Shown here piece by piece: positions 5,439 through 52,687 of a stretch of DNA of 64,000 bases (positions are counted from its first letter, which is position 1; the number at the start of each line of letters is the position of its first letter). The notes beneath the pieces were generated by a model. The model did no database searches and was not told where the DNA came from. It saw only the letters and a program-made list of their open reading frames with translations. This DNA comes from a virus. A program made the position numbers and the translations under genes. The stretch is taken from the IMG/VR virus record IMGVR_UViG_3300006903_000012, one strand, 5' to 3'.

Positions 5439-5699
5439 CAAAGTCTTACAGACCTTTGAGTAAGTCATTTCTGCTCACTTCTTGCAATTCCTATTTCTTG
5501 CAAGTTCAGACTATATCATTATCTTTCTTCAAGATAGTTCCCACATAGTCGTTACACACTTCCGCAGATGCGGGTTGGCTCGGTATTTGGACTCTCACCA
5601 TTCACCGAATTCGAGAACTGTTACAACATCCATTACTGGATGAAGCCGCCAAGTTGACGGGTTAAGTAGGGGGGCGGTTGCTGTATACTCGTCGGCGCA
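5439..5699 (-). mobile_element. ORF-less group I intron (~261 nt) in the portal gene
   Basis: On the minus strand: R-like GUGUAACGACUAUGUGGG (5540-5557), and S-like GAUAUAGUC (5509-5517) pairing with it as P7. P3 is CCUAC (5666-5670) with GUGGG. A GNRA hairpin lies at 5627-5642, P8 at 5520-5536, P9 at 5481-5504. P1 is GUCGGU/GCCGAC (5691-5705) with U.G at the splice site. The terminal G is at 5439. Splicing restores the frame. Confidence 0.7.
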
Positions 5700-5731
5700 A
5701 CCGACTTCTGTACAATAAGTTCATCTGCCAT
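5700..5731 (-). CDS. portal gene exon 1 (MADELIVQKS + 2 nt)
   Basis: The ATG at 5729-5731 lies 8 nt after AGGAG (5740-5744). The 32 nt end in GU and join to U at 5438 to give V-NKLQPLYLANP in frame. Confidence 0.6.
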
Positions 5732-17402: not shown

Positions 17403-18140
17403 TTAGTTATATATTCTAATATCATCCTTTATTTTCTCTTCCATTCTGGCCCATTCAGCAATAGCTTGTGATACTTGAGCCACAGCATAAACTGTCTCTT
17501 CGCGACTCACTTCAATTGGCGAGTCTCCAAAGACTTTCGTTAAATGAACAACCAAATACCAGTGATAACCGTCCCCATCCACATCATCTAGGACCTTTGA
17601 GAATTGAACAAAGAATCTCTCAAAAAGTTCTTTCGTTTGGAGCATTACGAATCGGGCCATATTTTCGATTCGCTCATCATCACTATGCTCGAACCAGACA
17701 CTCGGCCAACTACTACTGTGGTGACCGACACCAGAGCAAGATGCGATTGTCGCAAACCCAACTGTATTCAACGCATCACACAAAGGAATAATCTCGGGAT
17801 CTAACTTCTCAGAATAATCTGGATTATCTCGAACTTTGTAATAGCTTGTTAATGCCTTCAAGTTCTCTCCTTGTATATTCTTAGTATCACTTTCTTGCCA
17901 TACTAACGCAGGTGGTATATTGTCTTCAATGCACTTTGCAATGGCCACTGAAAGTCCACGAATAATTCCGATAGCATCTTGTTGATTCATCAACCAACCA
18001 CGAGGTTCACCATTAGATTGAGTAATAATTAAATGAATACGATCACTTAGATCTTCATTCACAATAGGATTGACATGATACAGAACTTCAATCGTAGCAC
18101 CATTTCCCCATGTCTCAATATAGAGTTGCTTAAATTCCAT
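17403..18140 (-). CDS. hypothetical protein
   Basis: 245-aa ORF. Confidence 0.6.
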   Translation of the reverse strand: MEFKQLYIETWGNGATIEVLYHVNPIVNEDLSDRIHLIITQSNGEPRGWLMNQQDAIGIIRGLSVAIAKCIEDNIPPALVWQESDTKNIQGENLKALTSYYKVRDNPDYSEKLDPEIIPLCDALNTVGFATIASCSGVGHHSSSWPSVWFEHSDDERIENMARFVMLQTKELFERFFVQFSKVLDDVDGDGYHWYLVVHLTKVFGDSPIEVSREETVYAVAQVSQAIAEWARMEEKIKDDIRIYN

Positions 18141-18245
18141 GTTTTCCTTAGTTAAATTCTCTCATCATATATTTTCAATGTCTCTTTCCCAGCCAATTCA
18201 ACTACTCTTTGTTTCTCCTTTATCTATCAAAAGTTTTTCTATTTC

Positions 18246-18537
18246 TTATGGGAAAGTTGTATCTAAAATTACATGCCCGTAGTCTTCATCTCGATATAGA
18301 TAATGACCATCTGTAATATAGTCAGCGCCGTAAGACATTTTTAATGAATCTGCCTTTCTTATCTCGGCGTCCTTTTGATCTAACTTGTCCGCCCAGAGAC
18401 TGAAGATGTATACCTTGTTCTTGTAATCCTATATAAGAAAATACTTTTCGATTTTCTGCATCGATTGAACATATCCAATCCTTACCTCATAGTTCGACAC
18501 CTAAAGATTTAAATAAATGCGGATACTTTGTAGTCAT
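18246..18537 (-). pseudogene. disrupted small gene (in-frame TGA plus one frameshift)
   Basis: Hand translation. MTTKYPHLFKSLGVEL-TGA-GKDWICSIDAENRKVFSYI continues after a frame change as YKNKVYIFSLWADKLDQKDAEIRKADSLKMSYGADYITDGHYLYRDEDYGHVILDTTFP. Confidence 0.4.
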
Positions 18538-18561
18538 TTTTCAATCCACAACACAATATTA

Positions 18562-18921
18562 TCATTTGTTAATCTTCGTCTGTCTAAGCTCTTCGAATAT
18601 TTGTTCAGGTGTCATCTGTAATCCGCGCTGCACTTCTTTGTCGAAGCCAGCCATAATACTTGAAATATCATCTTCCGGTAACTGATCCTTGATACCACCT
18701 AATAATTGCTGAACCAAATCCCGTTGATGATGTAATTCCCACTGAGTCAGTGCCCAGACTTTTGGATCAGTGTCGAATCCCTTTAGCAGTAAAACTAGAT
18801 CATGTTCCAAATGGCCTAGAAAGCCGACATTCTTATATTTTTGTTCAAGCCATGGTTCAATAACTTTACAGCACCAACTGGCTATTCGTGCTTCATTGCT
18901 TTTCATTTTGAATTTTCTCAA
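18562..18921 (-). CDS. hypothetical protein
   Basis: 119-aa ORF. The start may be the internal ATG at 18906. Confidence 0.55.
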   Translation of the reverse strand: MRKFKMKSNEARIASWCCKVIEPWLEQKYKNVGFLGHLEHDLVLLLKGFDTDPKVWALTQWELHHQRDLVQQLLGGIKDQLPEDDISSIMAGFDKEVQRGLQMTPEQIFEELRQTKINK

Positions 18922-19348
18922 TCACTCGCAACCCTCTCGAAACTTTAGGATCCCGAATTAGATAACCATACTCGACTAATTTATTTAGATTGTAATTAAC
19001 GACTGATGTTGATGAGATACCCGCCTTCTTTCCAATCTCACGGATGGTCGGCGGATACCCAACTGCTTGAACTTGATCTGTAATGAAAGACAGAATAGTT
19101 TGCTGCCGCTGAGACAACTTAATATAAACTGGCAACTTATCTACAACTTCAAAGACTCTAACTTGACATTGAAAGTATAATTTGCGGCCGCAGCGGCATG
19201 TAGTCGGATCATTTCTATCAGAATGTAAAACAAAAACCCAACCCATATACTCTTGGCCGCAAACGCACTTTGTAAGTGGCAATGAATCACCATCATTTAG
19301 ATCACAACGAATAGATTTTGTTACATCTTTATCCACTATTACTTCCAT
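18893..19348 (-). CDS. Zn-finger plus LexA-type winged-helix DNA-binding domain protein (no S24 peptidase domain)
   Basis: The C-terminus LSQRQQTILSFITDQVQAVGYPPTIREIGKKAGISSTSVVNYNLNKLVEYGYLIRDPKVSRGLRVI matches the LexA N-terminal DNA-binding domain pattern. The N-terminus has CxC...CxC cysteines. Confidence 0.6.
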   Translation of the reverse strand: MEVIVDKDVTKSIRCDLNDGDSLPLTKCVCGQEYMGWVFVLHSDRNDPTTCRCGRKLYFQCQVRVFEVVDKLPVYIKLSQRQQTILSFITDQVQAVGYPPTIREIGKKAGISSTSVVNYNLNKLVEYGYLIRDPKVSRGLRVIEKIQNEKQ

Positions 19349-19542
19349 GGATTTGTCCTTTGAATAACTGCTACTCGGATTCCAAAAACATAGACAAATG
19401 TATAACCAATCGCATGACTTTCGATACCTAAAATAGGATTAGCTGACCTAACATTTATTGCTGCTAACGGCGTCAGAATAAATCTAAAGTCAATATGCGT
19501 CTTGAGCCAATTCGTAAGCATACTTTTACTCCTAGGACTCAT
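19339..19542 (-). CDS. hypothetical protein
   Basis: 67-aa ORF overlapping both neighbours by about 10 nt. Confidence 0.4.
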   Translation of the reverse strand: MSPRSKSMLTNWLKTHIDFRFILTPLAAINVRSANPILGIESHAIGYTFVYVFGIRVAVIQRTNPWK

Positions 19543-19732
19543 CTATATTAGTTGGGCGATATTCAATTTTAGGTCCCGGCGTATAATCCTCAACTTCTGC
19601 GCCACACCAAGGACATTTAGAATCATCCAGCCAATTTTCTGGACCCGACCAATCACATGAACTACAGATTTTCAACTCATCTTTCACTTTGCTGCTCCTT
19701 GTTGAATAATCTTCCAACCACATCGAGTACAA
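19532..19732 (-). CDS. small Zn-ribbon protein
   Basis: CSSCDW...CPWCG. The track start is a TTG; the ATG at 19723 is an alternative. Confidence 0.5.
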   Translation of the reverse strand: MYSMWLEDYSTRSSKVKDELKICSSCDWSGPENWLDDSKCPWCGAEVEDYTPGPKIEYRPTNIDES

Positions 19733-19813
19733 ATTATTTTCAAGTTCGGATTAATTTTGAAGACATAAGCTAAAGATTCTGCTGACCAGTCCCACACAAA
19801 ATAAAAGACTCGA

Positions 19814-20227
19814 TTACAGTCCGGACATTGACGGTACATACGGATTATACTTCTCTGAGTTTTTGAAAATATTTGAGATTACCAATTGATCTAATCCAGT
19901 TTCTTTACAAAGTTTATCCAGCATAAATTTCTCCGGATCAGTTGTCATTCTCAACTCATATTCACAAATGAAAACTTTTCTAGCTGTTCTGTCTTTGAAG
20001 TAAAATGACCACTCATAAGTTCGGGATACATGATTATAAGAATTTATTACATAATCGTAACTATTCAGTGTAGATTCAGGTTGATTTTCTGTAACTACTT
20101 TATTAGAACCTAGTTTATTTAGTGGTCCGCCACAGTAAATACACGGACCTACATACGCATAAGGTAGTCGCTGACCACAAAAACTACAAACCTCAAAATA
20201 AGTGTAATCATCCTTTAGTAAATACAT
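19814..20227 (-). CDS. hypothetical Zn-ribbon protein
   Basis: CSFCGQ...CIYCG near the N-terminus. Confidence 0.55.
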   Translation of the reverse strand: MYLLKDDYTYFEVCSFCGQRLPYAYVGPCIYCGGPLNKLGSNKVVTENQPESTLNSYDYVINSYNHVSRTYEWSFYFKDRTARKVFICEYELRMTTDPEKFMLDKLCKETGLDQLVISNIFKNSEKYNPYVPSMSGL

Positions 20228-20612
20228 ATCTCAATTGTTCTGATAGATATTTGCTCATCCACTTTTCACCATTCTCCTGTTCTAACCATCGCACTTTTCT
20301 TTTATATCTTGTCGCATGCTCAATCTCACTTCTAGTACTCGAGCCAATATAACCGTCAACATTTAGAACTAAAATTTCATCAGCCAATTCAATTTTCTTT
20401 TTGTGTAACTCATCTAATTTAGATTTAATACCATCGAGTTCAGACTCTGAAAGATGATTAAATAATTCAACATCAGATTTTAGATCACAACCAATTGACA
20501 AAACTATTCTGCCCGCTAAAGTCTCATCAAAGTTTGCCTTGCGAAAGGCATCGAAAAATCTTGTCGATCCACAAAGACACACAATTATCGGTCTATCACT
20601 CATTCCGGCCAC
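20208..20612 (-). CDS. Rossmann-like protein (nucleoside 2-deoxyribosyltransferase-like fold candidate)
   Basis: IIVCLCGSTRF...LVLNVDGYIGSSTRSEIEHA pattern. Confidence 0.4.
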   Translation of the reverse strand: MAGMSDRPIIVCLCGSTRFFDAFRKANFDETLAGRIVLSIGCDLKSDVELFNHLSESELDGIKSKLDELHKKKIELADEILVLNVDGYIGSSTRSEIEHATRYKRKVRWLEQENGEKWMSKYLSEQLRYVFTKG

Positions 20613-20902
20613 CCTCCTCCTGCATGTGTAATTTTTCTATCTGTCTTAATCTTTGTCCAATATCGAAGCCCGATCTGACCAATCTTACCAACCGGCCAGC
20701 AAATTAAAACAAGTCCAACAAATACGGGCCACATTGTACTAACAATCAGACTAAATAAACCTGATGAGATGATACTTATAAAATTAGATGAACCGAATTG
20801 TCGAGTAAACCAAACTGAAAAGAAAATAACTGAGACAATATAACCGCCTAGATAAAAGAAACTCCAACTAATCATTTCTTCTCCTTCTTTATTCTCACAC
20901 AC
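20600..20902 (-). CDS. small membrane protein
   Basis: 100 aa with 3 hydrophobic helices. Confidence 0.5.
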   Translation of the reverse strand: MCENKEGEEMISWSFFYLGGYIVSVIFFSVWFTRQFGSSNFISIISSGLFSLIVSTMWPVFVGLVLICWPVGKIGQIGLRYWTKIKTDRKITHAGGGWPE

Positions 20903-21255
20903 TTAACTGGCACATTTTGCTTCTTAGCTCGTCGACACATATCTGCTGTTCCCTTCCCACCAGGAAACGCAATAACAAAATCTGGTTGGCCTTCATCTAA
21001 CATTCGCTGATTACGAATTGCTCCGGCAGCTAATTTATATTTATTCCAATCGGCCGGATACAGTTGTCGATCAATCCCCAATCTTTTAGCTTCTTGATCG
21101 TACAAAGTATCAGCCCCGCGAGCGGCCCCGTGAATGATTAATAAATTTGAATATCGTTTCTTCAGAACTAGCATTACTCGCCGAACTAATTTCGTATCAT
21201 CAAAATCACGACCGCCACAACAAAGAACAATTACTTGTTTAGTCTGTTTTCCCAT
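20872..21255 (-). CDS. SLOG-superfamily protein (DUF2493-like)
   Basis: VIVLCCGGRDFDD...LIIHGAARGADTL...AFPGGKGTADM matches the DUF2493/YpsA-like Rossmann pattern. Confidence 0.6.
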   Translation of the reverse strand: MGKQTKQVIVLCCGGRDFDDTKLVRRVMLVLKKRYSNLLIIHGAARGADTLYDQEAKRLGIDRQLYPADWNKYKLAAGAIRNQRMLDEGQPDFVIAFPGGKGTADMCRRAKKQNVPVKCVRIKKEKK

Positions 21256-21260
21256 AAAGA

Positions 21261-21488
21261 CTACTTGCTGTTCTTTTTAATAAAAGTTTCTAGCTTCCTC
21301 TGCATTAACTTCGAACACTTAAGAAGTTTCTTAGCAATTCTCAAAAGCTCCTTCTTATCATCACCGAAACCACCAAAACTTTTAATTCTGTCTTTTGGTG
21401 TACCTTTACCTAAAGCATCAGCTGGACTTTTTGGTCCGTAGGCAATCTCCCACAACTCTTCTCCTGGAGTCTGCTTTATTGTTGCCAT
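21261..21488 (-). CDS. hypothetical protein
   Basis: 75-aa ORF. Confidence 0.5.
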   Translation of the reverse strand: MATIKQTPGEELWEIAYGPKSPADALGKGTPKDRIKSFGGFGDDKKELLRIAKKLLKCSKLMQRKLETFIKKNSK

Positions 21489-21489
21489 T

Positions 21490-21690
21490 TTATTTAGTCT
21501 CCTTCATATAATTATTAGGGTCGATACGCCTTTCTATCTCGGACACCAAATCCAAGTATTGTTTTCTATAATACTGCGACATATTTAAAACTCCAAAAGA
21601 TTCAACAATAATAAGTACAGTCAACATAAGAACTTTCCACATGCGAAATTGTAATTGAAACTTAAAATCGAATCTTGGATCCCATAGCAT
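21490..21690 (-). CDS. hypothetical small membrane protein
   Basis: 66-aa ORF with one hydrophobic helix. Confidence 0.45.
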   Translation of the reverse strand: MLWDPRFDFKFQLQFRMWKVLMLTVLIIVESFGVLNMSQYYRKQYLDLVSEIERRIDPNNYMKETK

Positions 21691-21923
21691 TAAAATAACT
21701 CCAAATCTTCAGCCGAACGCTGACACATGGCTGCCACATCGACTAACTCTGCCAACAATTTCTTTAGATTCCGCTTCTTAGTTTTCTTCCACACTTCTAA
21801 TTTAACTTCGTCTAGCTCTTCAAGAATATTTGCATAGGCATCATGTGGTGAACTAATTTGTCGGGCATGTTTCTTTCTGGCTGATTTCAGTTTCTTTGAA
21901 ACGAGTTCTTGAAAATTAGACAT
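21690..21923 (-). CDS. small helical protein, possibly MazG-like
   Basis: SPHDAYANILEELDEVKLEVWKK...ELVDVAAMC resembles the MazG-type helix pair. Confidence 0.4.
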   Translation of the reverse strand: MSNFQELVSKKLKSARKKHARQISSPHDAYANILEELDEVKLEVWKKTKKRNLKKLLAELVDVAAMCQRSAEDLELF

Positions 21924-22067
21924 AGTTGATTCTCCTATTTTCTAATAAATAAAATCGAATCTCTTCTACTGATTAACAATTCCCGCGAGTTGTTTACACA
22001 TTTCCCTTATGCCAAGATGTTGATATTCAGTTGTAGCAGTAGCCGTTAATGTTCGAAGAGATTCGAA

Positions 22068-22141
22068 AGCACCAAGCGGGACTCGAACCCACAATCTACA
22101 AATTAGAAGTTTGTCGATCTATCCAGTTGATCTATTGGTGC
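22068..22141 (-). tRNA. tRNA-Arg (anticodon UCU)
   Basis: Hand-folded cloverleaf: acceptor GCACCAA/UUGGUGC, D arm GAUC-AACUGGAUA-GAUC, anticodon arm ACAAA-CUUCUAA-UUUGU, T arm GUGGG-UUCGAGU-CCCGC. 74 nt. Confidence 0.85.
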
Positions 22142-22147
22142 GACAAA

Positions 22148-22223
22148 TAGGCTCGGTGAGATTCGAACTCACATGTAACCATTACCATTTCTGCACGTTA
22201 TAAGCATGAGTGGATACGAGCCT
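22148..22223 (-). tRNA. non-canonical tRNA-like gene (possible anticodon UAU)
   Basis: Perfect 7-bp acceptor AGGCUCG/CGAGCCU and canonical T arm GUGAG-UUCGAAU-CUCAC, 76 nt, lying 6 nt from tRNA-Arg. The only CU-NNN-AA loop (CUUAUAA, 4-bp stem) sits where the D arm should be, and I could not fold a D arm. Confidence 0.35.
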
Positions 22224-22232
22224 ATGACTAAT

Positions 22233-22469
22233 TTACGGATTCTTCACTTCACCACTAATAAATTTCTTGTAAGTTTCACGGAAATGCTCAACTTGTCCTT
22301 TTAATGATGAGTTGTAAAACATTCCTGAACCATGCCAATAATGAGACACCCACCAATCGTTTTCTTTCTCAATAAATCCAATACAGACATTATCTACATA
22401 AACAAGATAGAAATCGTTCTTAATTTTACGCTTCCAAAGTCCTTTTCTGCGTTTCATTTTTTTCTCCAA
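22233..22469 (-). CDS. hypothetical protein
   Basis: 78-aa ORF between tRNA-like elements. Confidence 0.5.
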   Translation of the reverse strand: MEKKMKRRKGLWKRKIKNDFYLVYVDNVCIGFIEKENDWWVSHYWHGSGMFYNSSLKGQVEHFRETYKKFISGEVKNP

Positions 22470-22525
22470 AACTTTACAATTAATTCTATTATGCCAGTTA
22501 CACTGTCCGGCTCGGCTTCCCTTTT

Positions 22526-22785
22526 TACAGATCGTGAGGGTTGAACTCGCAAGTTAGTAAACAAATCAAACTAACAAGGACACCAATTGACACTGTCTGA
22601 TCTGCCCAATGACACGTATCTCAGCCTATCTCCTACAGTCGCAGAGTAGACAATTGATACTCTTCAAAGATGTGTCACTTGTTGACTGGCTGACAGGTCA
22701 TAAACTGACTCGAACAGTTCTGCTCTCCGCATGAGGACGGCGCATTCTACCCGATATGCTATCTACCTGTGCCAATTTCTCAGCC
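22526..22785 (-). ncRNA. three tandem tRNA-sized modules with partial tRNA features
   Basis: 22526-22605: 7-bp acceptor GCAGAUC/GAUCUGU, D arm, T-like arm GCGAG-UUCAACC-CUCAC, but an 11-nt anticodon loop. 22609-22678: 7-bp acceptor GUGACAC/GUGUCAU and no T loop. 22688-22785: D arm GCAU-AUCGGGUAGA-AUGC and T arm AACUG-UUCGAGU-CAGUU at canonical spacing, with a CAU-containing loop but poor anticodon and acceptor stems. Confidence 0.3.
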
Positions 22786-22798
22786 GATGCTTTCTTAC

Positions 22799-23062
22799 TT
22801 AATTCTCAAACTTGAATGGCTCCCGATAATATCGCCATTCAATAAACCCTTCCGAACGGCAATGAGCTGCAAAACTAGAAGAGTAGAGTTTCTGTTGAAT
22901 CTCTACAAATGTCTCACCAGCCCACAAAACAATCGGTGCTGGTCTGTTTGGCCGATAACCTAGAATTTGATGCCTAGTTTTTGAACAAGGATAAACAGGC
23001 TTTTCAGACATTCGGGCACCAGGCCGATCACGTCCTTCAACAATAATATCTGTTGTCTTCAT
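22799..23062 (-). CDS. hypothetical protein
   Basis: ORF trimmed to the ATG at 23062 (MKTTDIIVEG...). Confidence 0.45.
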   Translation of the reverse strand: MKTTDIIVEGRDRPGARMSEKPVYPCSKTRHQILGYRPNRPAPIVLWAGETFVEIQQKLYSSSFAAHCRSEGFIEWRYYREPFKFEN

Positions 23063-29223: not shown

Positions 29224-30255
29224 TTATCCTAATAAATCAACCAACAAAACAGCCGTTTCCATAAACTTTTCCAGGTCAGCATCGCTCCCAACAGTAATCC
29301 GTATCAGATCACTTAAAGGTAATCCGTGACTGCCCAATGTCCGAATTAGAATTCCTTTCGATTCCAAAAACCTAGCGATGGAGAGCGCAGATCGGGGTTT
29401 GGTATCATACACCATAAAATTTCCAGCATGTGAAACGAATCTCAAGAAGGGCAGCTTTTCTTCAATCTGCGCTTCCCATTTGTCCCGCATCTCTAATGTT
29501 TCGGAAACAACAACTCTAGAGTGATTCTCCTTGACCGCTTCCTCAGCAAGCAATAGACTCGGCTCTGAAATCCCCCATGGCAGCCGGAGCTTCTTAAAGA
29601 TTATAGCTAAAGCCGGATGGCTGATTGTGTAGCCCACACGAATACCCGGAAGCCCATAGGCTTTAGAAAAAGAATAAATGTAAACCAAGTTTGGATACTT
29701 CATCGGATCCAAAAGCGGCCCCGGATTATCTGAAAATTCATAGTAAGCCCGATCTACTGCTATCACCCGATCACCATCTAAAAGTTTTTCCAGATCATAG
29801 GTATAAGGTAAGGGGTTATTAGGATCACAAAGAAATAACAGTTGATCACCAGCATAGATCTCATAGGGTAAATCAGATGATTGGTATTCATTTACGGTAT
29901 AACCATTAAGATCCGCTCGCAGCTTATACATCGAAAACGTAGGAACTACCACGCCCACACTATGATATTCTTGAACACAGATCGAGCGAATCAGGACATC
30001 TATACATTCGGTCGCGCCCACCATCGCTGTACACATCTCAGGAGCCGATGGGTAAAGTAAAGACTCCAGATGCTTTGGCGAGCGAGGGTACTCATTATAA
30101 GACTGATATAGAACGTCGGCCAGAGAATTATTTTCAACAAATGACTCATTCGCCATCAGACGAAGTCCATCAACCTGCTGATGAGATGTATCATAGCTGG
30201 TACCTGACACTACCCACTCAGGTAACTCCGATATAATGTCATCAATTCCAGGCAT
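29224..30255 (-). CDS. class I/II PLP-dependent aminotransferase (HisC-like)
   Basis: YSFSKAYGLPGIRVGY is the PLP-lysine motif of histidinol-phosphate-type aminotransferases. Size is 343 aa. The start overlaps the queC stop by 14 nt. Confidence 0.75.
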   Translation of the reverse strand: MPGIDDIISELPEWVVSGTSYDTSHQQVDGLRLMANESFVENNSLADVLYQSYNEYPRSPKHLESLLYPSAPEMCTAMVGATECIDVLIRSICVQEYHSVGVVVPTFSMYKLRADLNGYTVNEYQSSDLPYEIYAGDQLLFLCDPNNPLPYTYDLEKLLDGDRVIAVDRAYYEFSDNPGPLLDPMKYPNLVYIYSFSKAYGLPGIRVGYTISHPALAIIFKKLRLPWGISEPSLLLAEEAVKENHSRVVVSETLEMRDKWEAQIEEKLPFLRFVSHAGNFMVYDTKPRSALSIARFLESKGILIRTLGSHGLPLSDLIRITVGSDADLEKFMETAVLLVDLLG

Positions 30256-30919
30256 CGATGATTACTCCTCGCTGAATTAGCTGTTGCTTCCATTCTTGCC
30301 GCTTAACACAATGAACACAATGTCCGCATGGTTTATCAGTCAAACTTTCATAGCAGTCATGCGCATTCCAAATTTCAGGATCCTCAACTAAGCTCCTAGA
30401 AAGAATATCGATTCTGTCCCATTCCCACTCCTGAAATGGCGCACTAAATGTAATATCCTCACGGGTGGCTTCTTTAGCGGCCAGCATAAATCGTTCATAA
30501 AAAGATTCAGTTGCATCAGGAAAGGGGGCATCATCTGGTTCCTTGTGAAACCCGGTCATAATCTTAGCGTATCCCAAAGCTAAACCAAAAACCACCGCAT
30601 GACTCAGTAGAAGTAAATTTCTGGCTTCTAATCTGTTACCTTCTAGAAAAGGCTTCCAACTTTCACCACTCACTTGGTTTGGATAACTACCCTTTAAAAT
30701 GGGACTTGTAAGTCGCTTAGATAAATCTGTAATTGGAACGGCATGAAAAGGAATATTATACTTTTGGCAAAAATACTTGTTTGATTCGAACTCACCTACA
30801 GCTGCCTTCTGTCCATAATCAAACCAGATCACACCGTCTGGTTTCGGGCAGAGAACTAATAAAGAAATACTATCCATGCCACCGCCGCTCATCAATAAGC
30901 TTCTAGTATTCATAGGCAT
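30242..30919 (-). CDS. queC: 7-cyano-7-deazaguanine synthase
   Basis: PP-loop LMSGGGMDSISL and C-terminal Zn cluster CGHCVHCVKR. Confidence 0.85.
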   Translation of the reverse strand: MPMNTRSLLMSGGGMDSISLLVLCPKPDGVIWFDYGQKAAVGEFESNKYFCQKYNIPFHAVPITDLSKRLTSPILKGSYPNQVSGESWKPFLEGNRLEARNLLLLSHAVVFGLALGYAKIMTGFHKEPDDAPFPDATESFYERFMLAAKEATREDITFSAPFQEWEWDRIDILSRSLVEDPEIWNAHDCYESLTDKPCGHCVHCVKRQEWKQQLIQRGVIIDAWN

Positions 30920-31193
30920 ACCTTTCCTTTAAAATCTTCAGTAACAAATCGTTGATTTGCTTCTTCTTGCTTCGATGATGAATATCAAAATGACAATCTC
31001 GACAAACACAGGCCATATATTTAGGATCAAAAATTTTTTCAGATCGGACGCGGCCACCACTCTTTTGTAAAATCTCATGCACCTCCGCACCTGCTGTTCC
31101 ATGAATCAAGCAGCGTCCATGATCCCGATACCGGACCATTTTGATAATTGTCAGTTTCTCGGCTTTTGTCAGCTTCTTAACTCGTCTGTCCAT
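30903..31193 (-). CDS. HNH endonuclease
   Basis: RCLIHGTAGAEVHEIL...CVCRDCHFDIHH. It overlaps both neighbours by 17 nt. Confidence 0.6.
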   Translation of the reverse strand: MDRRVKKLTKAEKLTIIKMVRYRDHGRCLIHGTAGAEVHEILQKSGGRVRSEKIFDPKYMACVCRDCHFDIHHRSKKKQINDLLLKILKERYAYEY

Positions 31194-31800
31194 TTTGATA
31201 ATAGGCTAAGAACTCTTTCCGAATATCTGAATGCTCAAGAAACAATCCGCTGAGCTTGGCAGTAACAACCTTACTGTGCCGCATCTTCACACCACGGCAG
31301 TTCATACATCCATGCTGACCGACAATAATTACTCCGGCACCGTTAGGCTTCAAATGTTCATTAATTGCCTTTGAAATATCCACTGCTAACTGCTCTTGCA
31401 AAACTGGTCGTGCCGATAATAACTCAGCCAAACGCGGGATCTTTGATAGCCCAATCACATAACCGTCCTTAGATGGGAGATAACCAATTACCATTTGGTA
31501 AGTGATAGGCAATAGGTGATGGGGACACAGGCTGGTCGTCTCAATATTCTTGAAGACAACCATTTCATCGTAATCACTAGGGAACTTTTTCGACATTAGT
31601 TTCTTTATTTGCTTCTCAGTACCCCACATGCCCGAGCACATTTCTATAAGGGACTTAATGACTCGCTCCGGTGTCTCTTCAAAGTTAGGATCAGCGTCAA
31701 CTGTAATTCCCATATCCTGAAGAATTGTCTTCAGATGCAAAGCCATAGCTCCTTGAACTTGCTTGCTCGGTGGATTGTCAGGAATTGAATCTAATAACAT
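31177..31800 (-). CDS. folE: GTP cyclohydrolase I
   Basis: SLCPHHLLP, GLSKIPR...RPVLQEQL and HGCMNCRGV motifs. Confidence 0.9.
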   Translation of the reverse strand: MLLDSIPDNPPSKQVQGAMALHLKTILQDMGITVDADPNFEETPERVIKSLIEMCSGMWGTEKQIKKLMSKKFPSDYDEMVVFKNIETTSLCPHHLLPITYQMVIGYLPSKDGYVIGLSKIPRLAELLSARPVLQEQLAVDISKAINEHLKPNGAGVIIVGQHGCMNCRGVKMRHSKVVTAKLSGLFLEHSDIRKEFLAYYQNGQTS

Positions 31801-35030: not shown

Positions 35031-35654
35031 TTACTCAATAATTCTAGGACCGACAACCGCATCCCTAAAATCTAAATCGATTGTCAGAAGATTTTTCAAG
35101 TCTTTCAGAATAATTGGCTTCCAATCCGGATTTCTAAATATAGCTGCCGGATGAATGATCGGATATATCTTCAAACCAAATCTACCCATAAGAACTTTTC
35201 CCCGAACGGCAGAAATCTTTTTCTCGGATGGACAAAAGTAAGCCAGTGAAGTGGCTCCGACGACAACGACTATTTTGGGTCGTAATGTTTTTAACTGTAA
35301 CTGTAGGTGGGCACTGCATTGTGCAACCTCACGACCAGTCGGTGGTCGGTTGGCCGGCGGGCGACACTTAACAATATTAGTAATATAAGTTATATCTTCT
35401 GGAAACTTAACCTTCTCTAACAACTCCTGTAGCACTTCACCAGCCCGACCAACAAAGGGTAGCCCTTGCTCATCTTCATTCTCTCCGGGTGCCTCGCCCA
35501 CAAACATATAGGTAACATGCGATGTAACTCCCCGACCGACCACCACATTCTGTCGTGTTTTGTGTAAAGAACATTTCTCGCAAAGCTGCATATACTTAAA
35601 TGATTTAGGAATAGTACCAATTATCACAATACCCTGGCTCCGTCCTTTGACCAA
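35031..35654 (-). CDS. uracil-DNA glycosylase family 4-like protein
   Basis: CEKCSLHKTR, GEAPGENEDEQGLPFVGRAG and HPAAIFRNP motifs. Confidence 0.8.
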   Translation of the reverse strand: MVKGRSQGIVIIGTIPKSFKYMQLCEKCSLHKTRQNVVVGRGVTSHVTYMFVGEAPGENEDEQGLPFVGRAGEVLQELLEKVKFPEDITYITNIVKCRPPANRPPTGREVAQCSAHLQLQLKTLRPKIVVVVGATSLAYFCPSEKKISAVRGKVLMGRFGLKIYPIIHPAAIFRNPDWKPIILKDLKNLLTIDLDFRDAVVGPRIIE

Positions 35655-37399
35655 TATCTGGATGTGTATCCATCAGTTGCAAATGGAACTTTCTTAACTA
35701 ACATTTGCGCGCTATCCAGCATAGCTTTTTCTAACATAGCATTACAAGCATCCACTCTGTCTCTTGTCGTCTGCATAATAATCTCATCATGCACAATATT
35801 AACTATCTGCCCCAAGTCCGGATGTTTATTGATTCGAATCGTGGCAATTTTAGTCATTTCAGCCGCACTCCCTTGGATCGGAGTATTACCCGCTTGCCGA
35901 CTAGATTCTTCTAGCTGCATATCTAAATAGCGGCGACGGCCGATAAGTGTTTCGACATAACCATGTTGGGTTGCAAACTCAGCAATGTCATTCATATACT
36001 CAGTAACGCGCGGAAAGGTTCTAGCATGTTCAGTCGACAACTCTTTAGCTTCTCTCACTGATATTTTCAAACTCTTAGCTAACTTTTTGACACCCATTCG
36101 GTAGATCAATCCGAAATTGATATTCTTGGCTGGTTTTCTTCGCGGATCGTCTTTATCAATTGTATCGTCTTTATATAACTTTCTGGCGACGTGGACATGA
36201 ATATCTATACCTCTTTCAAAGGCTTCGATCATACCTGGATCACCACTTAATTCCGCTAAAATCCGTAATTCTTGCTGCGAATAGTCACGGGCTAATAAAA
36301 CCAAATCATCATCGGCGCCTGACCAGAAGCAGGCTCGATATTCCTGATACTCTTTAGACTTGTTTGGAATATTCATCAAGTTTGGTTTATCACCAGCAAA
36401 GCGACCCGTACGTGTTTCCACTTGTCGAATCCGCTGATGAACCCTACCTGTAATTGGATTCACATGTTCCTTTAGAAAAGCGCGACCATAGGTAGTTGTT
36501 AATTTTTGCAGCACCTTATATCTAGCAAACCTTCTCAATAGTGGGTGATCATACTTTTCTAATGAGTCGGCCACTGTTTCCTGCTTCAGATCAGGAAGGT
36601 CAATACCTAATTTATGCAGCCCATCCAAAATAATGGTTTGGCTGTTCGGATTCTCATCCGACAGGCTATCACCGAAAATAGTAATTCTTTTAGTCGTCGT
36701 CGGCAGGTCTCGCAATATTTCTTTTCGGACCTGAGCTAATTCCTCTTCTTTTTTCTCAGCTAAGGCCAACCATCTCTCTGTGTTCAGACTAAATCCGAGA
36801 GATTCAATATTAGCTAAGGCCGGAACTAACCGGTGCTCCAAATCTAAAACTCGCGGGAAGTTTTGGTAACCATTATCTGGTAACTCCTGCATCTTTTGAT
36901 AAATCTTAGGCAGCACCCAAGCATCCAATGCACCATAACGAACCATTTCATCCGTAACAGCATCTCCATTGATAAATCTATCTCGTACATCTTTTTTTAG
37001 TTTCAGATTAAGATGCTTTTGTGTCAAACCATCTAATGATAAATCTGGCCGATGGCCACTGTCATAAACTCCCTCGAATAGAAGTGTGTCAAAAATATTC
37101 TTTATTCTAACATCAAATGAGACTAAAAAATGCTTATACTCAAATGATGAATTATGAATAACTTTTATAACTCGATCATTTTCTAAAAGTTTGGCTAGCG
37201 ACCGAAAGTTGTCACGAAGTACAAAAACATCATCATCCACACACACTTGAGCCAAAACTACTCGATGAAGTCGGGGATCTGGTGGTACATTTTTGCGACC
37301 ATCCTTTAGAAATCTCCTTTTGGGGCTAGTCTCAATGTCTAAACCGATCAAACCCGATTTTGGTATTTTGGCAGCATCATCTATTAAATGAATTTGCAT
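35624..37399 (-). CDS. polA: family A DNA polymerase with 3'-5' exonuclease domain
   Basis: Exonuclease motifs GLDIETS, NSSFEYKH and YGALDA. Polymerase motifs A (DYSQQELRILA), B (RRKPAKNINFGLIY) and C (VHDEII). Confidence 0.9.
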   Translation of the reverse strand: MQIHLIDDAAKIPKSGLIGLDIETSPKRRFLKDGRKNVPPDPRLHRVVLAQVCVDDDVFVLRDNFRSLAKLLENDRVIKVIHNSSFEYKHFLVSFDVRIKNIFDTLLFEGVYDSGHRPDLSLDGLTQKHLNLKLKKDVRDRFINGDAVTDEMVRYGALDAWVLPKIYQKMQELPDNGYQNFPRVLDLEHRLVPALANIESLGFSLNTERWLALAEKKEEELAQVRKEILRDLPTTTKRITIFGDSLSDENPNSQTIILDGLHKLGIDLPDLKQETVADSLEKYDHPLLRRFARYKVLQKLTTTYGRAFLKEHVNPITGRVHQRIRQVETRTGRFAGDKPNLMNIPNKSKEYQEYRACFWSGADDDLVLLARDYSQQELRILAELSGDPGMIEAFERGIDIHVHVARKLYKDDTIDKDDPRRKPAKNINFGLIYRMGVKKLAKSLKISVREAKELSTEHARTFPRVTEYMNDIAEFATQHGYVETLIGRRRYLDMQLEESSRQAGNTPIQGSAAEMTKIATIRINKHPDLGQIVNIVHDEIIMQTTRDRVDACNAMLEKAMLDSAQMLVKKVPFATDGYTSRYWSKDGARVL

Positions 37400-37402
37400 C
37401 TT

Positions 37403-38380
37403 TTATCCATCCAGAAATGAACGATGCCGAATAGCATTTGATTCTCTATCAACCGGCTCATATCCCATATTATGCAGGTAGCGAACCGACACTCTATTTC
37501 TAGCCTGCCAATCCTTTTTCAGGGTATCGGTATTCGGCAGTTTCTGTTCTTTTAGCCATTTCGCTAGGTTTTCTTGAATAGTTGGATTCTGCTTTTCCCA
37601 ATGGTTGCCAGCCATACCCGTCCCAAAATCTATCTGCCCGAAAGGTGTATCACAATAACCGAAACGGCCACCCGAAACCCATGTAGTCGCATCTGCGGAA
37701 TCGCAGTCAACATGTTTTAGAAACTCAGGACTGGTTGTTGCCAGAACGTGCACCTTGATATTTCTTTGGTGGGCATAATCTATAAACCGCCGATAAAAAC
37801 TAATGTTGTGCTTGTGGGACTTTGGATTCTCTAAGGCTAAATATTTATATAACCCAGAATCGCACCATTCCTTCCACTCATCAAAACTACGAGTCCAATG
37901 CCAAATCCGAATGATCTTCTTGGGCGATTTCAGATTCTCTAGCATATACTGACACAACTTATCGGCTGCCTTCCGACTGGAAAAGATGTCAATGTCCATA
38001 TCGAATGCCCAATCGACCCAATCATCATAGTAGTTCAAAAACTTTACATATTTTCTAGTGTATTCCAGCATTTCCGGAAACCGCTTCAGAACAGAGATAC
38101 GTGTCTGTTTCATTTCCGGACTGTTACTACTCAAGCCTTTGCCAGGAACTTTGAAGATTCGATAAAAGGAAAAGACGCCGCTATCAATAAATAGCTGTTG
38201 GGTCGTTTTCTTTAAACTAGCAAACTGCAACTTCAATTTCTCTTTGGGGTTGTCTTTCAAATACCAATAGCTGATCAGAATATTCTCGACTCGCTCAGGC
38301 AAAAGTATGTCATCTACAAATTTCTTTGTCAGCGATGTCGAAAACACCATTCGATTTTTACGTCTCACCTTTTTCGGCAT
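37403..38380 (-). CDS. dpdA: DpdA-like (tRNA-guanine transglycosylase family) DNA 7-deazaguanine transglycosylase
   Basis: FIDSGVFSF (compare TGT DSGGFQ), VHVLATTSP (compare LHLLGVGxP) and VDCDSADATTW. Genomic context includes folE, queD, queE and queC. Confidence 0.6.
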   Translation of the reverse strand: MPKKVRRKNRMVFSTSLTKKFVDDILLPERVENILISYWYLKDNPKEKLKLQFASLKKTTQQLFIDSGVFSFYRIFKVPGKGLSSNSPEMKQTRISVLKRFPEMLEYTRKYVKFLNYYDDWVDWAFDMDIDIFSSRKAADKLCQYMLENLKSPKKIIRIWHWTRSFDEWKEWCDSGLYKYLALENPKSHKHNISFYRRFIDYAHQRNIKVHVLATTSPEFLKHVDCDSADATTWVSGGRFGYCDTPFGQIDFGTGMAGNHWEKQNPTIQENLAKWLKEQKLPNTDTLKKDWQARNRVSVRYLHNMGYEPVDRESNAIRHRSFLDG

Positions 38381-43243: not shown

Positions 43244-43975
43244 CTAATGCGAACGAATAAACTCTGATGGTGACAACCAGCCTTCAGTCACTGGTAAATC
43301 TTGATACTTATCTAATTGACACACCGGCCAATAACCGGGGCCAGGTGGGAAGTTTTTATGTCGGCGCCCACAAGCCGCTTGCTCACCATTGATATAATCC
43401 TTTAGATAAAAAGACCGGATCTCAAAATGCAAATGCGAATTATACATATCACCCGGCCACATACAAACTTGACCCAATGGTTGTCCTAACTCAACTATCT
43501 GACCAGCTGCAACAACTAGTCGATCCAAATGACTATACACTGAAAAGACATTCTTGTGGCCGACAATAAGCACACCGCAGGGATAATTGACCATTTCAGC
43601 ATACATCACTTGCCCATCAGCCACTGATAGAATTAACTGGTTAACTGTAACCAACCAATAACCGAAATCCGCATCCCATGTGTTTGGCTTAATCATCCAA
43701 TCTTCACCGGCATGAAACCCGCCATCCGATCGACTATAGATTTGAAAGTTTTGATATATAAACCACTGCCCAGGATGCTTGAATGGATAAGAAAAATGTT
43801 CTTCTATTGGCGATAAGACAAACTCTTTAGGAGTCACAACAGTCGATATGATTTCTTCCGATTTGCCAAATCCTAACCCTTTTTCACTGACACTGTTATC
43901 CATTGTATGATGAGTTACTGGTGAGCCAAAAAGAAGACCATAACAAAAGAGACAAAATAAATGTCTGAGTTTCAT
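43244..43975 (-). CDS. secreted M23 family metallopeptidase
   Basis: Signal-like N-terminus, HAGEDW (HxxxD) and NSHLHFEI (HxH). Confidence 0.8.
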   Translation of the reverse strand: MKLRHLFCLFCYGLLFGSPVTHHTMDNSVSEKGLGFGKSEEIISTVVTPKEFVLSPIEEHFSYPFKHPGQWFIYQNFQIYSRSDGGFHAGEDWMIKPNTWDADFGYWLVTVNQLILSVADGQVMYAEMVNYPCGVLIVGHKNVFSVYSHLDRLVVAAGQIVELGQPLGQVCMWPGDMYNSHLHFEIRSFYLKDYINGEQAACGRRHKNFPPGPGYWPVCQLDKYQDLPVTEGWLSPSEFIRSH

Positions 43976-50618: not shown

Positions 50619-50752
50619 ATCTTCTTATCACGACTAGCTTCAACTGCTCGACCCATTTCGACCACACTGTCGAATCCCCAACGGACAGCAATCTGTGCAA
50701 CCGTCAATCCTTTATTTCTAAGAAATACCCAAGCCTTCCAAAGAAGTTGCAT
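50615..50752 (-). CDS. 45-aa helix-turn-helix-like micro-protein
   Basis: Hand translation: MQLLWKAWVFLRNKGLTVAQIAVRWGFDSVVEMGRAVEASRDKKM. The ATG overlaps the queE stop (TAATG) and the stop overlaps the next start. Confidence 0.4.
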   Translation of the reverse strand: MQLLWKAWVFLRNKGLTVAQIAVRWGFDSVVEMGRAVEASRDKKM

Positions 50753-51645
50753 TAGACACCTGCCTTTTGTCCCCAGGCTAAAGCATGCAATTGGGGAAAG
50801 ACAATAAAATTCTTGAATCTAACATCCTTAGCGGTGATTTCAAAGAAATATTGAAGGTTATCACAAATCGCTTGCCGAACTGAAAACACGTTTTCGTCAT
50901 CAGGATATTGTAGATTCGGATCAAGATAAAAATGTTGAGGAGCTAGTGGTGTTCCCACACTTAGATACCGGGGCACTTGGAACTCTCCGATTTCTTGGCT
51001 CGCCCAATGAATCCATTCCAAATCTGTACCATCAAATGCCACAAATTTCAAAGCAGTTATATATTCTCGCGGTTGCGTCTGCAGCAAACTCCAAACTATA
51101 TCTTTCTCAAATCGATTGCTCATCCCGCTCGATGGCGGTTTAGGTGAAACCACTAAACAATTCATAGCTAGATGTACATCTAACGAGAGTCGACGGCTGC
51201 CTTGGGTCTCCATTGCCAATTTATAGGTTCCGCCAAATCGAGCTACAAATTCAGCATCTACAAACAAAGCTGGATTGCCGCCTGACAAGGTAATCCAATC
51301 ATCAGACTGCAAACCCAAAGACTGTAGCCGACTGTGAATCTCATCAACAGTTAGCATTTCCTTTTTCCAACCAGGATACTTAGGCAAGACAGCATATTTT
51401 GTGTCGCACCAACTACAATCCCAGTCGCAACCAGCAAAACGGACAAAGAATGTTCGACGACCGGCTAAAGGACCCTCTCCCTGCGTTGTTGGGCCGAATA
51501 CCTCTGAAATGGGATACTTATATGTTGAGACTTTTTGAAGAAATGTATTATTCAACTTCTGCGGTTCGACCATAGGATGATTTTGCATAAACTCTCGATA
51601 AAAATCTTCACGAGCTTCAATATCTTCTTCTGTTAGTAATCGCAT
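50752..51645 (-). CDS. queE: 7-carboxy-7-deazaguanine synthase (radical SAM)
   Basis: TTQGEGPLAGRRTFFVRFAGCDWDCSWCDTKY. Confidence 0.85.
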   Translation of the reverse strand: MRLLTEEDIEAREDFYREFMQNHPMVEPQKLNNTFLQKVSTYKYPISEVFGPTTQGEGPLAGRRTFFVRFAGCDWDCSWCDTKYAVLPKYPGWKKEMLTVDEIHSRLQSLGLQSDDWITLSGGNPALFVDAEFVARFGGTYKLAMETQGSRRLSLDVHLAMNCLVVSPKPPSSGMSNRFEKDIVWSLLQTQPREYITALKFVAFDGTDLEWIHWASQEIGEFQVPRYLSVGTPLAPQHFYLDPNLQYPDDENVFSVRQAICDNLQYFFEITAKDVRFKNFIVFPQLHALAWGQKAGV

Positions 51646-51649
51646 TGGT

Positions 51650-52159
51650 TTATTCCTCCTCGATATCTAATTCACGAAACCCATCAGCAGTCCAATCATC
51701 ATTTGTGTATTCGGCCCAACTGGTTGGTGTTTCAAAAAACCGGACACAATTAAGAACAAGACCACGACCATAATTAGTCTCAATACCTTCGACAATCAAT
51801 TTATATGCTGCCTTAGCTAAATTCTCAGCAGTCGTTCGGCAACCGACATTAACTAACTGATCCTGAAGTCCGATTCGCTCTTTCACATTCTCATATAAAA
51901 CAAAAGCCTCAACAATCGGCTCATCTCCAGCGACTAGCATCTTATGATCCCAAACGTCAACTACGCTCCAATTGACTAATCGTTTTAGCTCACTAAAATC
52001 AATTAGCATCCCTTCACTACTAGTACCTGGTAATGGATGAATATCACCTGAAACTGTCACCTCCAGGACAGCATTATGCCCATGTAGATTTCTGCACTTG
52101 CCGGAATGGTTCGGCAAACAGTGCCCATAACTGAATTCGAACCGCTTTGTAACTTGCAT
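51650..52159 (-). CDS. queD: 6-carboxytetrahydropterin synthase
   Basis: FEFSYGHCLPNHSGKCRNLHGHN (PTPS/QueD Zn and catalytic motif). Confidence 0.9.
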   Translation of the reverse strand: MQVTKRFEFSYGHCLPNHSGKCRNLHGHNAVLEVTVSGDIHPLPGTSSEGMLIDFSELKRLVNWSVVDVWDHKMLVAGDEPIVEAFVLYENVKERIGLQDQLVNVGCRTTAENLAKAAYKLIVEGIETNYGRGLVLNCVRFFETPTSWAEYTNDDWTADGFRELDIEEE

Positions 52160-52180: not shown

Positions 52181-52687
52181 CTAGTTATATTCATGCACGA
52201 TAACAGTATCTGGTAATTCTTTTATGATCGGCAACACATCTTGTCGTCGCAATTTTCCATAACCAATACCTGGAAACGGCATCGCAATTGAAATATTCTT
52301 TCTGACACGTAAATAACAATTTAATAATGTTGTACTAAACCCAATTACTGACAAGAGAGACTGCTTTGAGTACAAAAGTTTAGTTTGGAACAACCCTAAT
52401 CTAGAGATGCTTTGACCAAATGGATTACCGGGATTTTCAATGAACTCGACAGTAATAAACCCATACAGAAAAACGTCATACGTGCCAGCAGATCCGACAC
52501 GCAAACTCGATCCAGAATCGATGATTGCATTTCCTGCGATTTTGGCTAACTGTGCACTCCTTTTCTGTGCTTCGCCTGCCGAACCTTTTCCCATAACTAG
52601 CTGATTTGCAGTTCCAATACATCCATTCGTCGTAACACAAATTAAGTCTGACTCTGAATCCCACAGATTAGTCTTTGAGAGTTTCAC
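52181..52687 (-). CDS. possible macro-domain (ADP-ribose binding/processing) protein
   Basis: DLICVTTNGCIGTANQLVMGKGSAGEA...FQTK...IAMPFPGIGYGKL resembles the phage Macro_2-type pattern from memory. Confidence 0.4.
   Translation of the reverse strand: MKLSKTNLWDSESDLICVTTNGCIGTANQLVMGKGSAGEAQKRSAQLAKIAGNAIIDSGSSLRVGSAGTYDVFLYGFITVEFIENPGNPFGQSISRLGLFQTKLLYSKQSLLSVIGFSTTLLNCYLRVRKNISIAMPFPGIGYGKLRRQDVLPIIKELPDTVIVHEYN

Follow-up and report, generated by a model that had tools for sequence, protein, structure and literature searches.

A pyridoxal-phosphate aminotransferase encoded beside a divergent QueC in an uncultured phage: a candidate tailoring enzyme of 7-deazaguanine DNA modification

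Introduction

In a stretch of viral DNA from the IMG/VR record IMGVR_UViG_3300006903_000012 (64,000 nucleotides; the whole stretch is hereafter called the window), the gene of a HisC-like, pyridoxal phosphate (PLP)-dependent aminotransferase overlaps the end of queC, a gene of 7-deazaguanine synthesis. The locus raises the question of whether this enzyme takes part in the modification of phage DNA and, if so, which step it would catalyze. Phage DNA is known to contain eight different 7-deazaguanine bases, and a new tailoring enzyme has accompanied each addition to the list. The 64-kb window carries all five core genes of such a system (folE, queD, queE, queC and a dpdA-like gene) on the minus strand. 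The aminotransferase is likely to be functionally linked, in some way, to this 7-deazaguanine module. The form of the link is put forward more tentatively, at somewhat under an even chance: the PLP enzyme would supply an amine, QueC would ligate this amine to 7-carboxy-7-deazaguanine (CDG), and DpdA would insert the resulting amide into DNA.

Pairing of QueC with aminotransferases across phages

The window QueC has just two relatives among 5.8 billion protein clusters, those of loci L002 and L003 (48% and 42% identity, respectively). In both, the next gene encodes a class III aminotransferase (PF00202) and overlaps queC, and dpdA follows immediately after. A scan of GTDB provided one further clade member, L036 (QueC of 45% identity), on a contig of 62 kb that had been binned into a Chitinophagales metagenome-assembled genome (MAG), and a scan of the JGI metagenomes with the QueC alignment yielded no additional clade member. 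An aminotransferase gene overlaps or abuts queC in all four known members of the QueC clade (window, L002, L003 and L036; QueCs of at least 42% identity). L036 and the window share a collinear run of eight genes at 31-47% identity: uracil-DNA glycosylase (UDG), p245, RecA, PD-(D/E)XK, RuvC-like, FolE, HNH-like and QueC. The class III enzyme of L036 is encoded upstream of queC, between the HNH-like gene and queC, whereas the HisC-like enzyme of the window is encoded downstream. It shares 37-43% identity with the L002/L003 type and is without the invariant CxxC-x8-C-x3-C motif of the latter; thus, the L036 enzyme is considered a third lineage.

A second, more distant QueC lineage (L029, L033 and L034/L035) is also paired with an L003-type class III enzyme, and the adjacency of QueC and aminotransferase extends to at least seven independent contigs. 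In a midpoint-rooted neighbor-joining tree of 120 class III sequences, the QueC-linked enzymes group together in a single clade, separate from the remaining sequences, about 115 in number. For one protein of the phage clade (P0331), the genomic context of which was initially not known, a QueC neighbor was predicted from the tree and then confirmed. The gene order of the second lineage is class III aminotransferase, QueC-like protein and GT2 glycosyltransferase (L029:6980-9649; L033:5965-8622; L034:2330-4245), with an inorganic pyrophosphatase (PF18823) upstream in L029, L034 and L035 and QueD downstream in L029 and L033. The QueC-like proteins of this lineage carry the motifs SGGSDS, YGQPE(x)3E, VPHRN and TYDG, and no DpdA is found in the retrieved flanks.

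No aminotransferase gene is near queC in the 14 IMG/VR loci that have more distant QueCs; of the 8 metagenome and 80 GTDB loci, L036 and three loci of Bdellovibrionales are the only ones with such a gene. The latter (Bdellovibrionales/Bacteriovoracaceae MAGs L037, L088 and L109) have a HisC-like gene about 580 bp from queC in the order QueC-DUF366-HisC-like-Cmk-heptosyltransferase-PfkB; they were judged a housekeeping coincidence and are not counted here. The pairing of QueC with DUF366 in these three loci may be meaningful.

The next-nearest QueCs, which include that of the cultured Achromobacter phage Motura and those of L004/L021, L005 and L006, have an AsnB-like glutamine amidotransferase encoded directly after queC. 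The dpdA gene directly follows the AsnB-like gene in Motura and is further downstream in L005 and L006; in L004, it is located upstream of queC. The QueC-AsnB-DpdA stretch of Motura (MN094788, L018; 221 kb) is at positions 17431-20735 of the record. A second short QueC-like open reading frame (ORF) of L006 (L006:10318-10848), with the PP-loop SGGVYS and C-terminal cysteines, is positioned after the QueC-AsnB pair and just before DpdA. Because relatives fill the position adjacent to queC with either aminotransferases or an AsnB-like enzyme, this position is read as a slot for tailoring enzymes, which in the window clade has come to be occupied by aminotransferases on at least three separate occasions. 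As in known phage systems, the identity of the final base is presumably set by the enzyme next to queC. Comparative genomics strongly supports the proposal of an earlier note on this DNA that the aminotransferase is part of the 7-deazaguanine pathway and not a passenger.

The HisC-like PLP enzyme

The window aminotransferase (29224-30255, minus strand; 343 aa) is a HisC-like class I/II PLP enzyme by its match to Pfam PF00155 (Aminotran_1_2; 4.4e-22). Its gene is directly downstream of queC with an overlap of 14 nucleotides, and its PLP-lysine motif, SFSKAYGLPGIRVGY, is present, in agreement with the earlier description. A Shine-Dalgarno sequence, GAGGAG (30265-30270, minus strand), is read within the 3' end of queC, 9 nucleotides before the ATG at 30255. 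The best NCBIfam models are hisC (TIGR01141; 160 bits, cut-off 276.55) followed by CobD (TIGR01140; 125.6 bits, cut-off 290.55). Other hisC models are likewise far under their cut-offs, and the enzyme is assigned to neither the HisC nor the CobD equivalog.

The active site was compared in an alignment of the window enzyme with 115 homologs and Escherichia coli HisC, the numbering of which reproduces the published active-site residues. K198 of the window enzyme aligns with the PLP lysine; K198, S197, D168, Y171, N147 and R206 correspond to E. coli K214, S213, D184, Y187, N157 and R222 and are invariant in the 115 homologs. They include the Schiff-base lysine in an S-x-S-K context, the Asp for the pyridine N, the Tyr and Asn for O3' and the Arg for the PLP phosphate. 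Y56 of the HisC active site is also kept, and the triad that binds the substrate anion (phosphate) is conserved as Y21, R305 and R319, matching HisC Tyr20, Arg322 and Arg335. The departures D85T, Y110F and Y243W fall at positions that are variable among the homologs too, with D85T and Y243W differing from the HisC majority. An AlphaFold2 model (predicted local distance difference test, pLDDT, of 84.9; predicted template modeling score, pTM, of 0.86) has HisC structures as its nearest Foldseek neighbors and CobD next. By its Schiff-base lysine, PLP contacts and anion site, the protein groups with the HisC subgroup of fold-type I PLP enzymes and is predicted to be catalytically competent, with a HisC-type pocket suited to a phosphorylated or otherwise anionic substrate.

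The window aminotransferase is an orphan. Besides itself, the best matches reach at most 37% identity and are ordinary cellular HisCs. This holds for the 5.8 billion clustered proteins and for 1.84 billion sequences, representing about 15 billion proteins, that were searched exhaustively with HMMER. Searches of IMG/VR found no close relative of the aminotransferase, of QueC or of DpdA, and matches in GenBank phages are of at most 28% identity and mostly from contaminated records. Tight clustering with a host HisC, which the earlier note would have taken as evidence against a pathway role, is not seen, as the closest protein of any origin stays at or below 37% identity. The identical 343-aa protein is encoded on five contigs of about 111 kb and is, therefore, no assembly artefact. 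Long homologs were considered as Rosetta-stone fusions but proved to be HisD-HisC or NTP-transferase-CobD/HisC fusions, none of which is fused to QueC.

The class III enzymes of the related phages are 51-60% identical to cellular enzymes, and the two of these that were inspected are in sugar operons without QueC. As the cellular kin are found in sugar operons, this points to a small metabolite rather than a deazapurine as the substrate of the class III phage enzymes. A class III family with the invariant CxxC-x8-C-x3-C motif (P0273-P0392; e.g., L030:7001-8299 and L032:7001-8296) includes many members from Anaerolineales, and its partners in sugar operons are SIS-domain proteins, FGGY kinase, DeoR and GalT/GalK. 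No substrate could be assigned to the class III enzymes: their scores stay under every NCBIfam equivalog cut-off, and the structures most similar to them are those of racemases, gamma-aminobutyrate (GABA) aminotransferase and dialkylglycine decarboxylase.

The likeness to HisC allows for an enzyme unrelated to DNA modification, namely a histidinol-phosphate or aromatic aminotransferase that was captured, evolves fast and would aid the amino-acid metabolism of the host from a chance position beside queC, with the DNA base being simply the preQ0 deoxynucleoside (dPreQ0). The HisC fold and every HisC substrate residue are retained, overlapping gene junctions are common in the window, the five core genes would be enough for dPreQ0, HisC-like genes occur near queC by apparent coincidence in Bdellovibrionales, and stand-alone HisC-like genes occur in phages outside of any deazaguanine context. 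Synechococcus phage S-SCSM2R is an example of the last; its HisC-like gene was rejected as a parallel to the window enzyme, as it has no deazaguanine context. By contrast, an aminotransferase touches queC in four of four clade members and in three to four contigs of the second lineage, with three enzyme lineages and both gene orders represented, and the pairing is absent from the 14 IMG/VR loci and limited, among the metagenome and GTDB loci, to L036 and the three apparently coincidental cases. In addition, the low identity to any HisC argues against a recent host capture, the score is far under the hisC equivalog cut-off, and a lone hisC without other his genes would be of little obvious benefit. 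Thus, a captured metabolic gene is regarded as an improbable explanation.

The divergent QueC

The window QueC (30242-30919, minus strand; 225 aa; Pfam QueC 3.2e-24) is the proposed CDG-activating ligase. It has no fused domain, is the sole QueC of the window and scores 71 bits against TIGR00364 (cut-off 150.3). The canonical signature of QueC consists of SGGxDS, YxQxHxxE, VPxRN, YPDC and the zinc cysteines C(x)8CxxCxxC with an essential Tyr (PMC13329287, 2026), and the QueCs of phages Dp-1 and CRB2 retain all of these motifs. In the window clade, SGGxDS is replaced by GGGxDS (SGGGMDS in the window), with a recognizable PP-loop preserved. YxQxHxxE is replaced by YGQKA(x)3E (YGQKAAVGE in the window), with loss of the His and gain of one residue; VPxRN by LExRN (LEARN in the window), with loss of VP and retention of RN; and YPDC by F/YPDA (FPDA in the window), with Ala in place of Cys. 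The zinc site of the window QueC is intact (C189-Y...C198GHC201VHC204), as is its CY pair. Thus, the window QueC departs from the canonical catalytic signature (cluster 1 of PMC13329287) and retains the PP-loop and the zinc site.

The motif with the lost His is one that binds an amine in a related enzyme. RoyL is a QueC homolog that ligates CDG to Lys, ornithine or diaminobutyrate, and its amine pocket is formed by the YxQxHxxE motif via Tyr41, His45 and Glu48 (bioRxiv 10.64898/2026.04.15.718813). Compared to this pocket by the published motif, the window QueC has the Tyr and the Glu, is without the His and has a spacing that is longer by one residue. Cap9, which ligates AMP-activated CDG to the N-terminal amine of a protein, has a Y/FxQ(x)5E spacing that is the same as in the window clade. 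QatC is a further precedent in the QueC family for the ligation of CDG to an amine other than ammonia.

The pathway genes and the DNA transglycosylase

The remaining core genes are found where the earlier note had placed them, and Pfam, NCBIfam, PHROG and hhalign matches confirm the set. FolE, a GTP cyclohydrolase I (31177-31800, minus strand), matches its Pfam family at 7.1e-49 and NF006826 at 169.5 bits, above the cut-off of 162. QueE, a radical-SAM 7-carboxy-7-deazaguanine synthase (50752-51645, minus strand), matches TIGR03365 at 1.7e-50 (171.8 bits, cut-off 206) and phrog_2076 at 4.7e-33. QueD, a 6-carboxytetrahydropterin synthase (51650-52159, minus strand), has a CxxxHGH motif and matches Pfam PTPS (5.9e-31) and TIGR03367 (5.2e-24).

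The DpdA-like ORF (37403-38380, minus strand) has no sequence match in Pfam, NCBIfam or PDB. It matches phrog_887 (1e-21) and, in profile-profile comparison, the DpdAs of phages: hhalign against those of Dp-1, CRB2 (a Rosebush-like mycobacteriophage), Motura and L005 gives a probability of 98.2% (E 2.9e-14). Both Asp motifs of DpdA, DSGxF and D(S/A)xTW, are inside this match, as D66-S-G-x-F and D230-A-T-T-W of the window protein. By this homology, the ORF qualifies as a DpdA DNA-guanine transglycosylase, with the activity being predicted.

The presence of DpdA also bears on where the product of the module would go. Outside of DNA, the QueC product could serve as a small-molecule deazapurine amide or be conjugated to protein, or its formation could drain CDG and in this way counter Cap9 (of the type IV cyclic-oligonucleotide-based antiphage signaling system, CBASS) or QatC; DpdA would then separately insert preQ0 or a base derived from the host. 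Members of the QueC family serve in protein deazaguanylation in defense and in the making of peptidyl-deazapurine metabolites, and L029 and L033 encode the GT2 glycosyltransferase and QueD with no DpdA in the retrieved flanks. However, DpdA comes immediately after the aminotransferase in L002 and L003, the single QueC of the window must also serve DpdA, and neither a candidate acceptor protein nor an export function was found. A product destined for anything other than DNA is, thus, considered very improbable.

Pfam scans of 39 window ORFs revealed no QueF, ArcS, glutamine amidotransferase or NAD(P)H reductase, and phmmer searches with the Dp-1 QueF, an AsnB-like protein and a class III aminotransferase against all window ORFs of at least 50 aa revealed no QueF or amidotransferase. 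Many small ORFs of the window are without assignment, and in its structural half (about 1-26 kb) phmmer alone was applied; the negative results hold within the sensitivity of these searches. The absence of QueF, ArcS and a QueC-amidotransferase fusion, as stated in the earlier note, is borne out to this extent, the last also by the length of QueC (only 225 aa). With no QueF, ArcS or glutamine amidotransferase-QueC fusion (Gat-QueC) found in the window, none of these enzymes is there to define the base.

A QueF-independent route to preQ1 would reconcile this gene set with a known product. The PLP enzyme could transaminate 7-formyl-7-deazaguanine to 7-aminomethyl-7-deazaguanine, to be inserted by DpdA, with the aldehyde derived by reduction of AMP-activated CDG or by partial reduction of preQ0. 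The preQ1 deoxynucleoside (dPreQ1) is a known phage base (PMC10516641), yet no QueF is found in the window. HisC-type and class III enzymes both aminate carbonyls without an alpha-carboxylate, one shared substrate would explain the convergence of three aminotransferases, and glutamate as the amino donor could alone account for both retained arginines. However, no gene for an aldehyde-making reductase or a QueF-like enzyme is found in the window or in the compact QueC-aminotransferase-DpdA clusters of L002 and L003, a literature search found no report that names 7-formyl-7-deazaguanine, and the cellular kin of the class III enzymes (51-60% identity, in sugar operons without QueC) argue for an ordinary metabolite. 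No HisC-type enzyme is known to act on aryl aldehydes. This route to preQ1 is considered unlikely. Of the chemistries offered in the earlier note, the attachment of an amine group fits better, given the remodeled pocket of QueC and the examples of RoyL and Cap9, whereas the amination of an aldehyde or keto derivative is left without a carbonyl-making enzyme in the window.

Proposed mechanism and its weight

In the favored reading of amine ligation, FolE, QueD and QueE would yield CDG, and the PLP enzyme would convert a carbonyl metabolite of the host to a primary amine. Because the anion pocket of HisC is retained, the candidate substrate may be a phosphorylated keto compound similar to imidazole-acetol phosphate or dihydroxyacetone phosphate; alternatively, the amine might arise by decarboxylation, as with CobD. 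The divergent QueC would activate CDG with ATP and accept this amine, not ammonia, to form an N-substituted 7-carboxamido-7-deazaguanine, in the manner of RoyL and Cap9. DpdA would then exchange the amide base for guanine in the phage DNA. Differing aminotransferases between phages would result in differing side chains. The ligation of an amine is favored because the partner of queC always delivers nitrogen, in the form of ammonia from glutamine for the AsnB-like enzymes and of an organic amine for the aminotransferases. A role of the PLP enzyme as ammonia donor to QueC was dropped, since aminotransferases release no ammonia. Gene content, an intact active site, recurrent adjacency and remodeled QueC motifs are what is observed.

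A 168-aa ORF directly upstream of queD (52181-52687, minus strand) is a tentative further part of the pathway. It matches phrog_335, annotated as 'phosphatase', at 1.5e-9 only, and searches of Pfam, NCBIfam and PDB give no support for this label. This phosphatase-like ORF would, tentatively, be relevant only if the ligated amine is a phospho-amine.

Several points weigh against the ligation of an amine made by the PLP enzyme. The source phage is uncultured and known from sequence alone, and the five-gene minimal set by itself gives dPreQ0. The HisC-like enzyme is a singleton, its own adjacency to queC being found in one genome only; the concern of the earlier note that the adjacency might be unique is true to this extent, while the adjacency of QueC and an aminotransferase recurs in the whole clade and in the second QueC lineage. 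The active site is, by sequence, indistinguishable from that of a genuine histidinol-phosphate aminotransferase, and the aminotransferase gene is 7 kb from dpdA in the window. Overlapping junctions are common in the window (29 of 75, or 39%), and the overlap of queC and the aminotransferase gene is, therefore, alone no evidence of coupling; translational coupling, which the earlier note had used as an argument, is weak for this reason and was dropped as evidence. RoyL keeps the His that is lost in the window clade, and the motif change is not simply that of an 'amine ligase'. The variant motifs are also common to the AsnB-linked QueCs, for which the nucleophile is probably still ammonia. Finally, should the amines made by the three unrelated aminotransferases differ, both QueC and DpdA would need to fit different substituents. 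The substrate, the ligase activity of the window QueC and the final base are what we infer here.

More broadly, it is possible, though held with some doubt, that N-substituted 7-carboxamido-7-deazaguanines form a previously unknown class of DNA base, with QueC serving as an amide ligase instead of a nitrile synthase and with swaps of its partner diversifying the side chain. The partners exchanged would be HisC-like, of two class III lineages or AsnB-like, and an arms race with restriction and glycosylase defenses may, with similar doubt, be the driver. There is a realistic chance that the module gives rise to a new family of DNA bases. If correct, the hypermodification of DNA would be tied to the CDG-amine coupling of the QueC family (Cap9, QatC and RoyL). 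A family of bulky, possibly charged substitutes of guanine would result, with consequences for restriction, CRISPR and glycosylase-based defenses, as would new enzymes for the labeling of DNA.

Other features of the window

The phage genes of the window form a single transcriptional sweep on the minus strand, with a G+C content of about 40% and a GC skew that is negative throughout. Between folE and queC, and overlapping both, is an ORF of 96 aa (30903-31193, minus strand) with HNH matches to phrog_119/740 at about 1e-5. An HNH-like ORF of 40% identity has the same position in the distant L036 (L036:4104-4625). Because its position is conserved in L036, it seems to belong stably to the module and not to be a mobile homing endonuclease.

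A uracil-DNA glycosylase gene (35031-35654, minus strand) is directly upstream, in window coordinates, of a family A DNA polymerase gene (35624-37399, minus strand) and overlaps it; in L003 (5087-7714), UDG, exonuclease and PolA are fused as a single protein of 875 aa. An M23 peptidase is encoded within the replication module (43244-43975, minus strand). A TadE/G-like Flp-pilus-assembly domain (PF13400; 2.5e-11), an unusual feature for a phage, is at the N-terminus of a 432-aa protein (55213-56511, minus strand). A group I intron (Rfam RF00028; 54.7 bits over the full-length model) is at 5487-5666 (minus strand), between an ORF of 290 aa (5721-6593) and an ORF of 1689 aa with a TTG start (362-5431); the two ORFs are probably one large gene split by a self-splicing intron. 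A tRNA-Arg(TCT) (22068-22141, minus strand), identified by ARAGORN and Rfam, is inside a region of about 1.5 kb (21255-22799) without an ORF of at least 90 aa.

Comparison with known systems

Like the described 7-deazaguanine systems of phages (PMC6884629; PMC10516641), the window encodes the full set of enzymes from GTP to CDG/preQ0 and a DpdA, in the replication module. The tailoring enzymes of those systems are Gat-QueC, ArcS, QueF and DpdL/M/N, whereas the additional enzyme of the window is a fold-type I PLP aminotransferase, and the window QueC departs from the canonical catalytic signature, unlike the QueCs of phages Dp-1 and CRB2. PMC6884629 and PMC10516641 make no mention of a PLP aminotransferase, and full-text literature searches found no link of one to QueC-DpdA phages. 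The sole related remark concerns uncharacterized gene clusters of Streptomyces in which PF00202 enzymes occur together with a preQ0 core (bioRxiv 10.64898/2026.04.15.718813). Within the literature searched, a PLP aminotransferase is of a kind not described among the tailoring enzymes of phage 7-deazaguanine systems.

The QueC-AsnB-like-DpdA clusters of Motura and L005/L006 share with the window the variant QueC motifs and a second enzyme encoded right after queC. They differ in the partner, which is a glutamine-dependent, asparagine-synthetase-like amidotransferase as opposed to the PLP enzyme of the window. No characterization of the DNA base of Motura-type QueC-AsnB phages was found in the literature searched, and Motura, as a cultured phage, provides a parallel entry to the AsnB-linked branch. 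With HisC and CobD, the window enzyme shares the fold, the PLP-binding residues and the Tyr/Arg/Arg anion triad; it differs from them in being phage-borne and encoded beside queC, without a his or cob context.

A functional analogy is provided by the synthesis of the Campylobacter jejuni capsule, in which two of the enzymes, Cj1436 and Cj1437, are presumably members of the HisC/CobD family. There, a phospho-amine is produced by either the Cj1437 transaminase or the Cj1436 decarboxylase, and Cj1438 acts as the ATP-dependent amide ligase, with Cj1435 as the phosphatase (PMC11800397). The likeness to the mechanism proposed here, which is one of function only, is the order of a PLP enzyme that generates a phospho-amine, an ATP-dependent ligation to a carboxylate and trimming by a phosphatase. 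By contrast, the capsule pathway has glucuronate on a polysaccharide as its carboxylate, and its ligase does not resemble QueC.

The closest parallels to the proposed ligation are RoyL, Cap9 and QatC, with which the window QueC is compared here at the level of motifs. The window QueC keeps the fold, PP-loop and zinc site and has an altered amine-pocket motif of the Cap9-like YxQ(x)5E form, and the amide chemistry proposed for it, between CDG and an amine, is the same. The contexts differ: RoyL serves the secondary metabolism of Streptomyces and has the motif His, and Cap9 and QatC act on protein N-termini in defense, whereas the product of the window QueC would enter DNA via DpdA.

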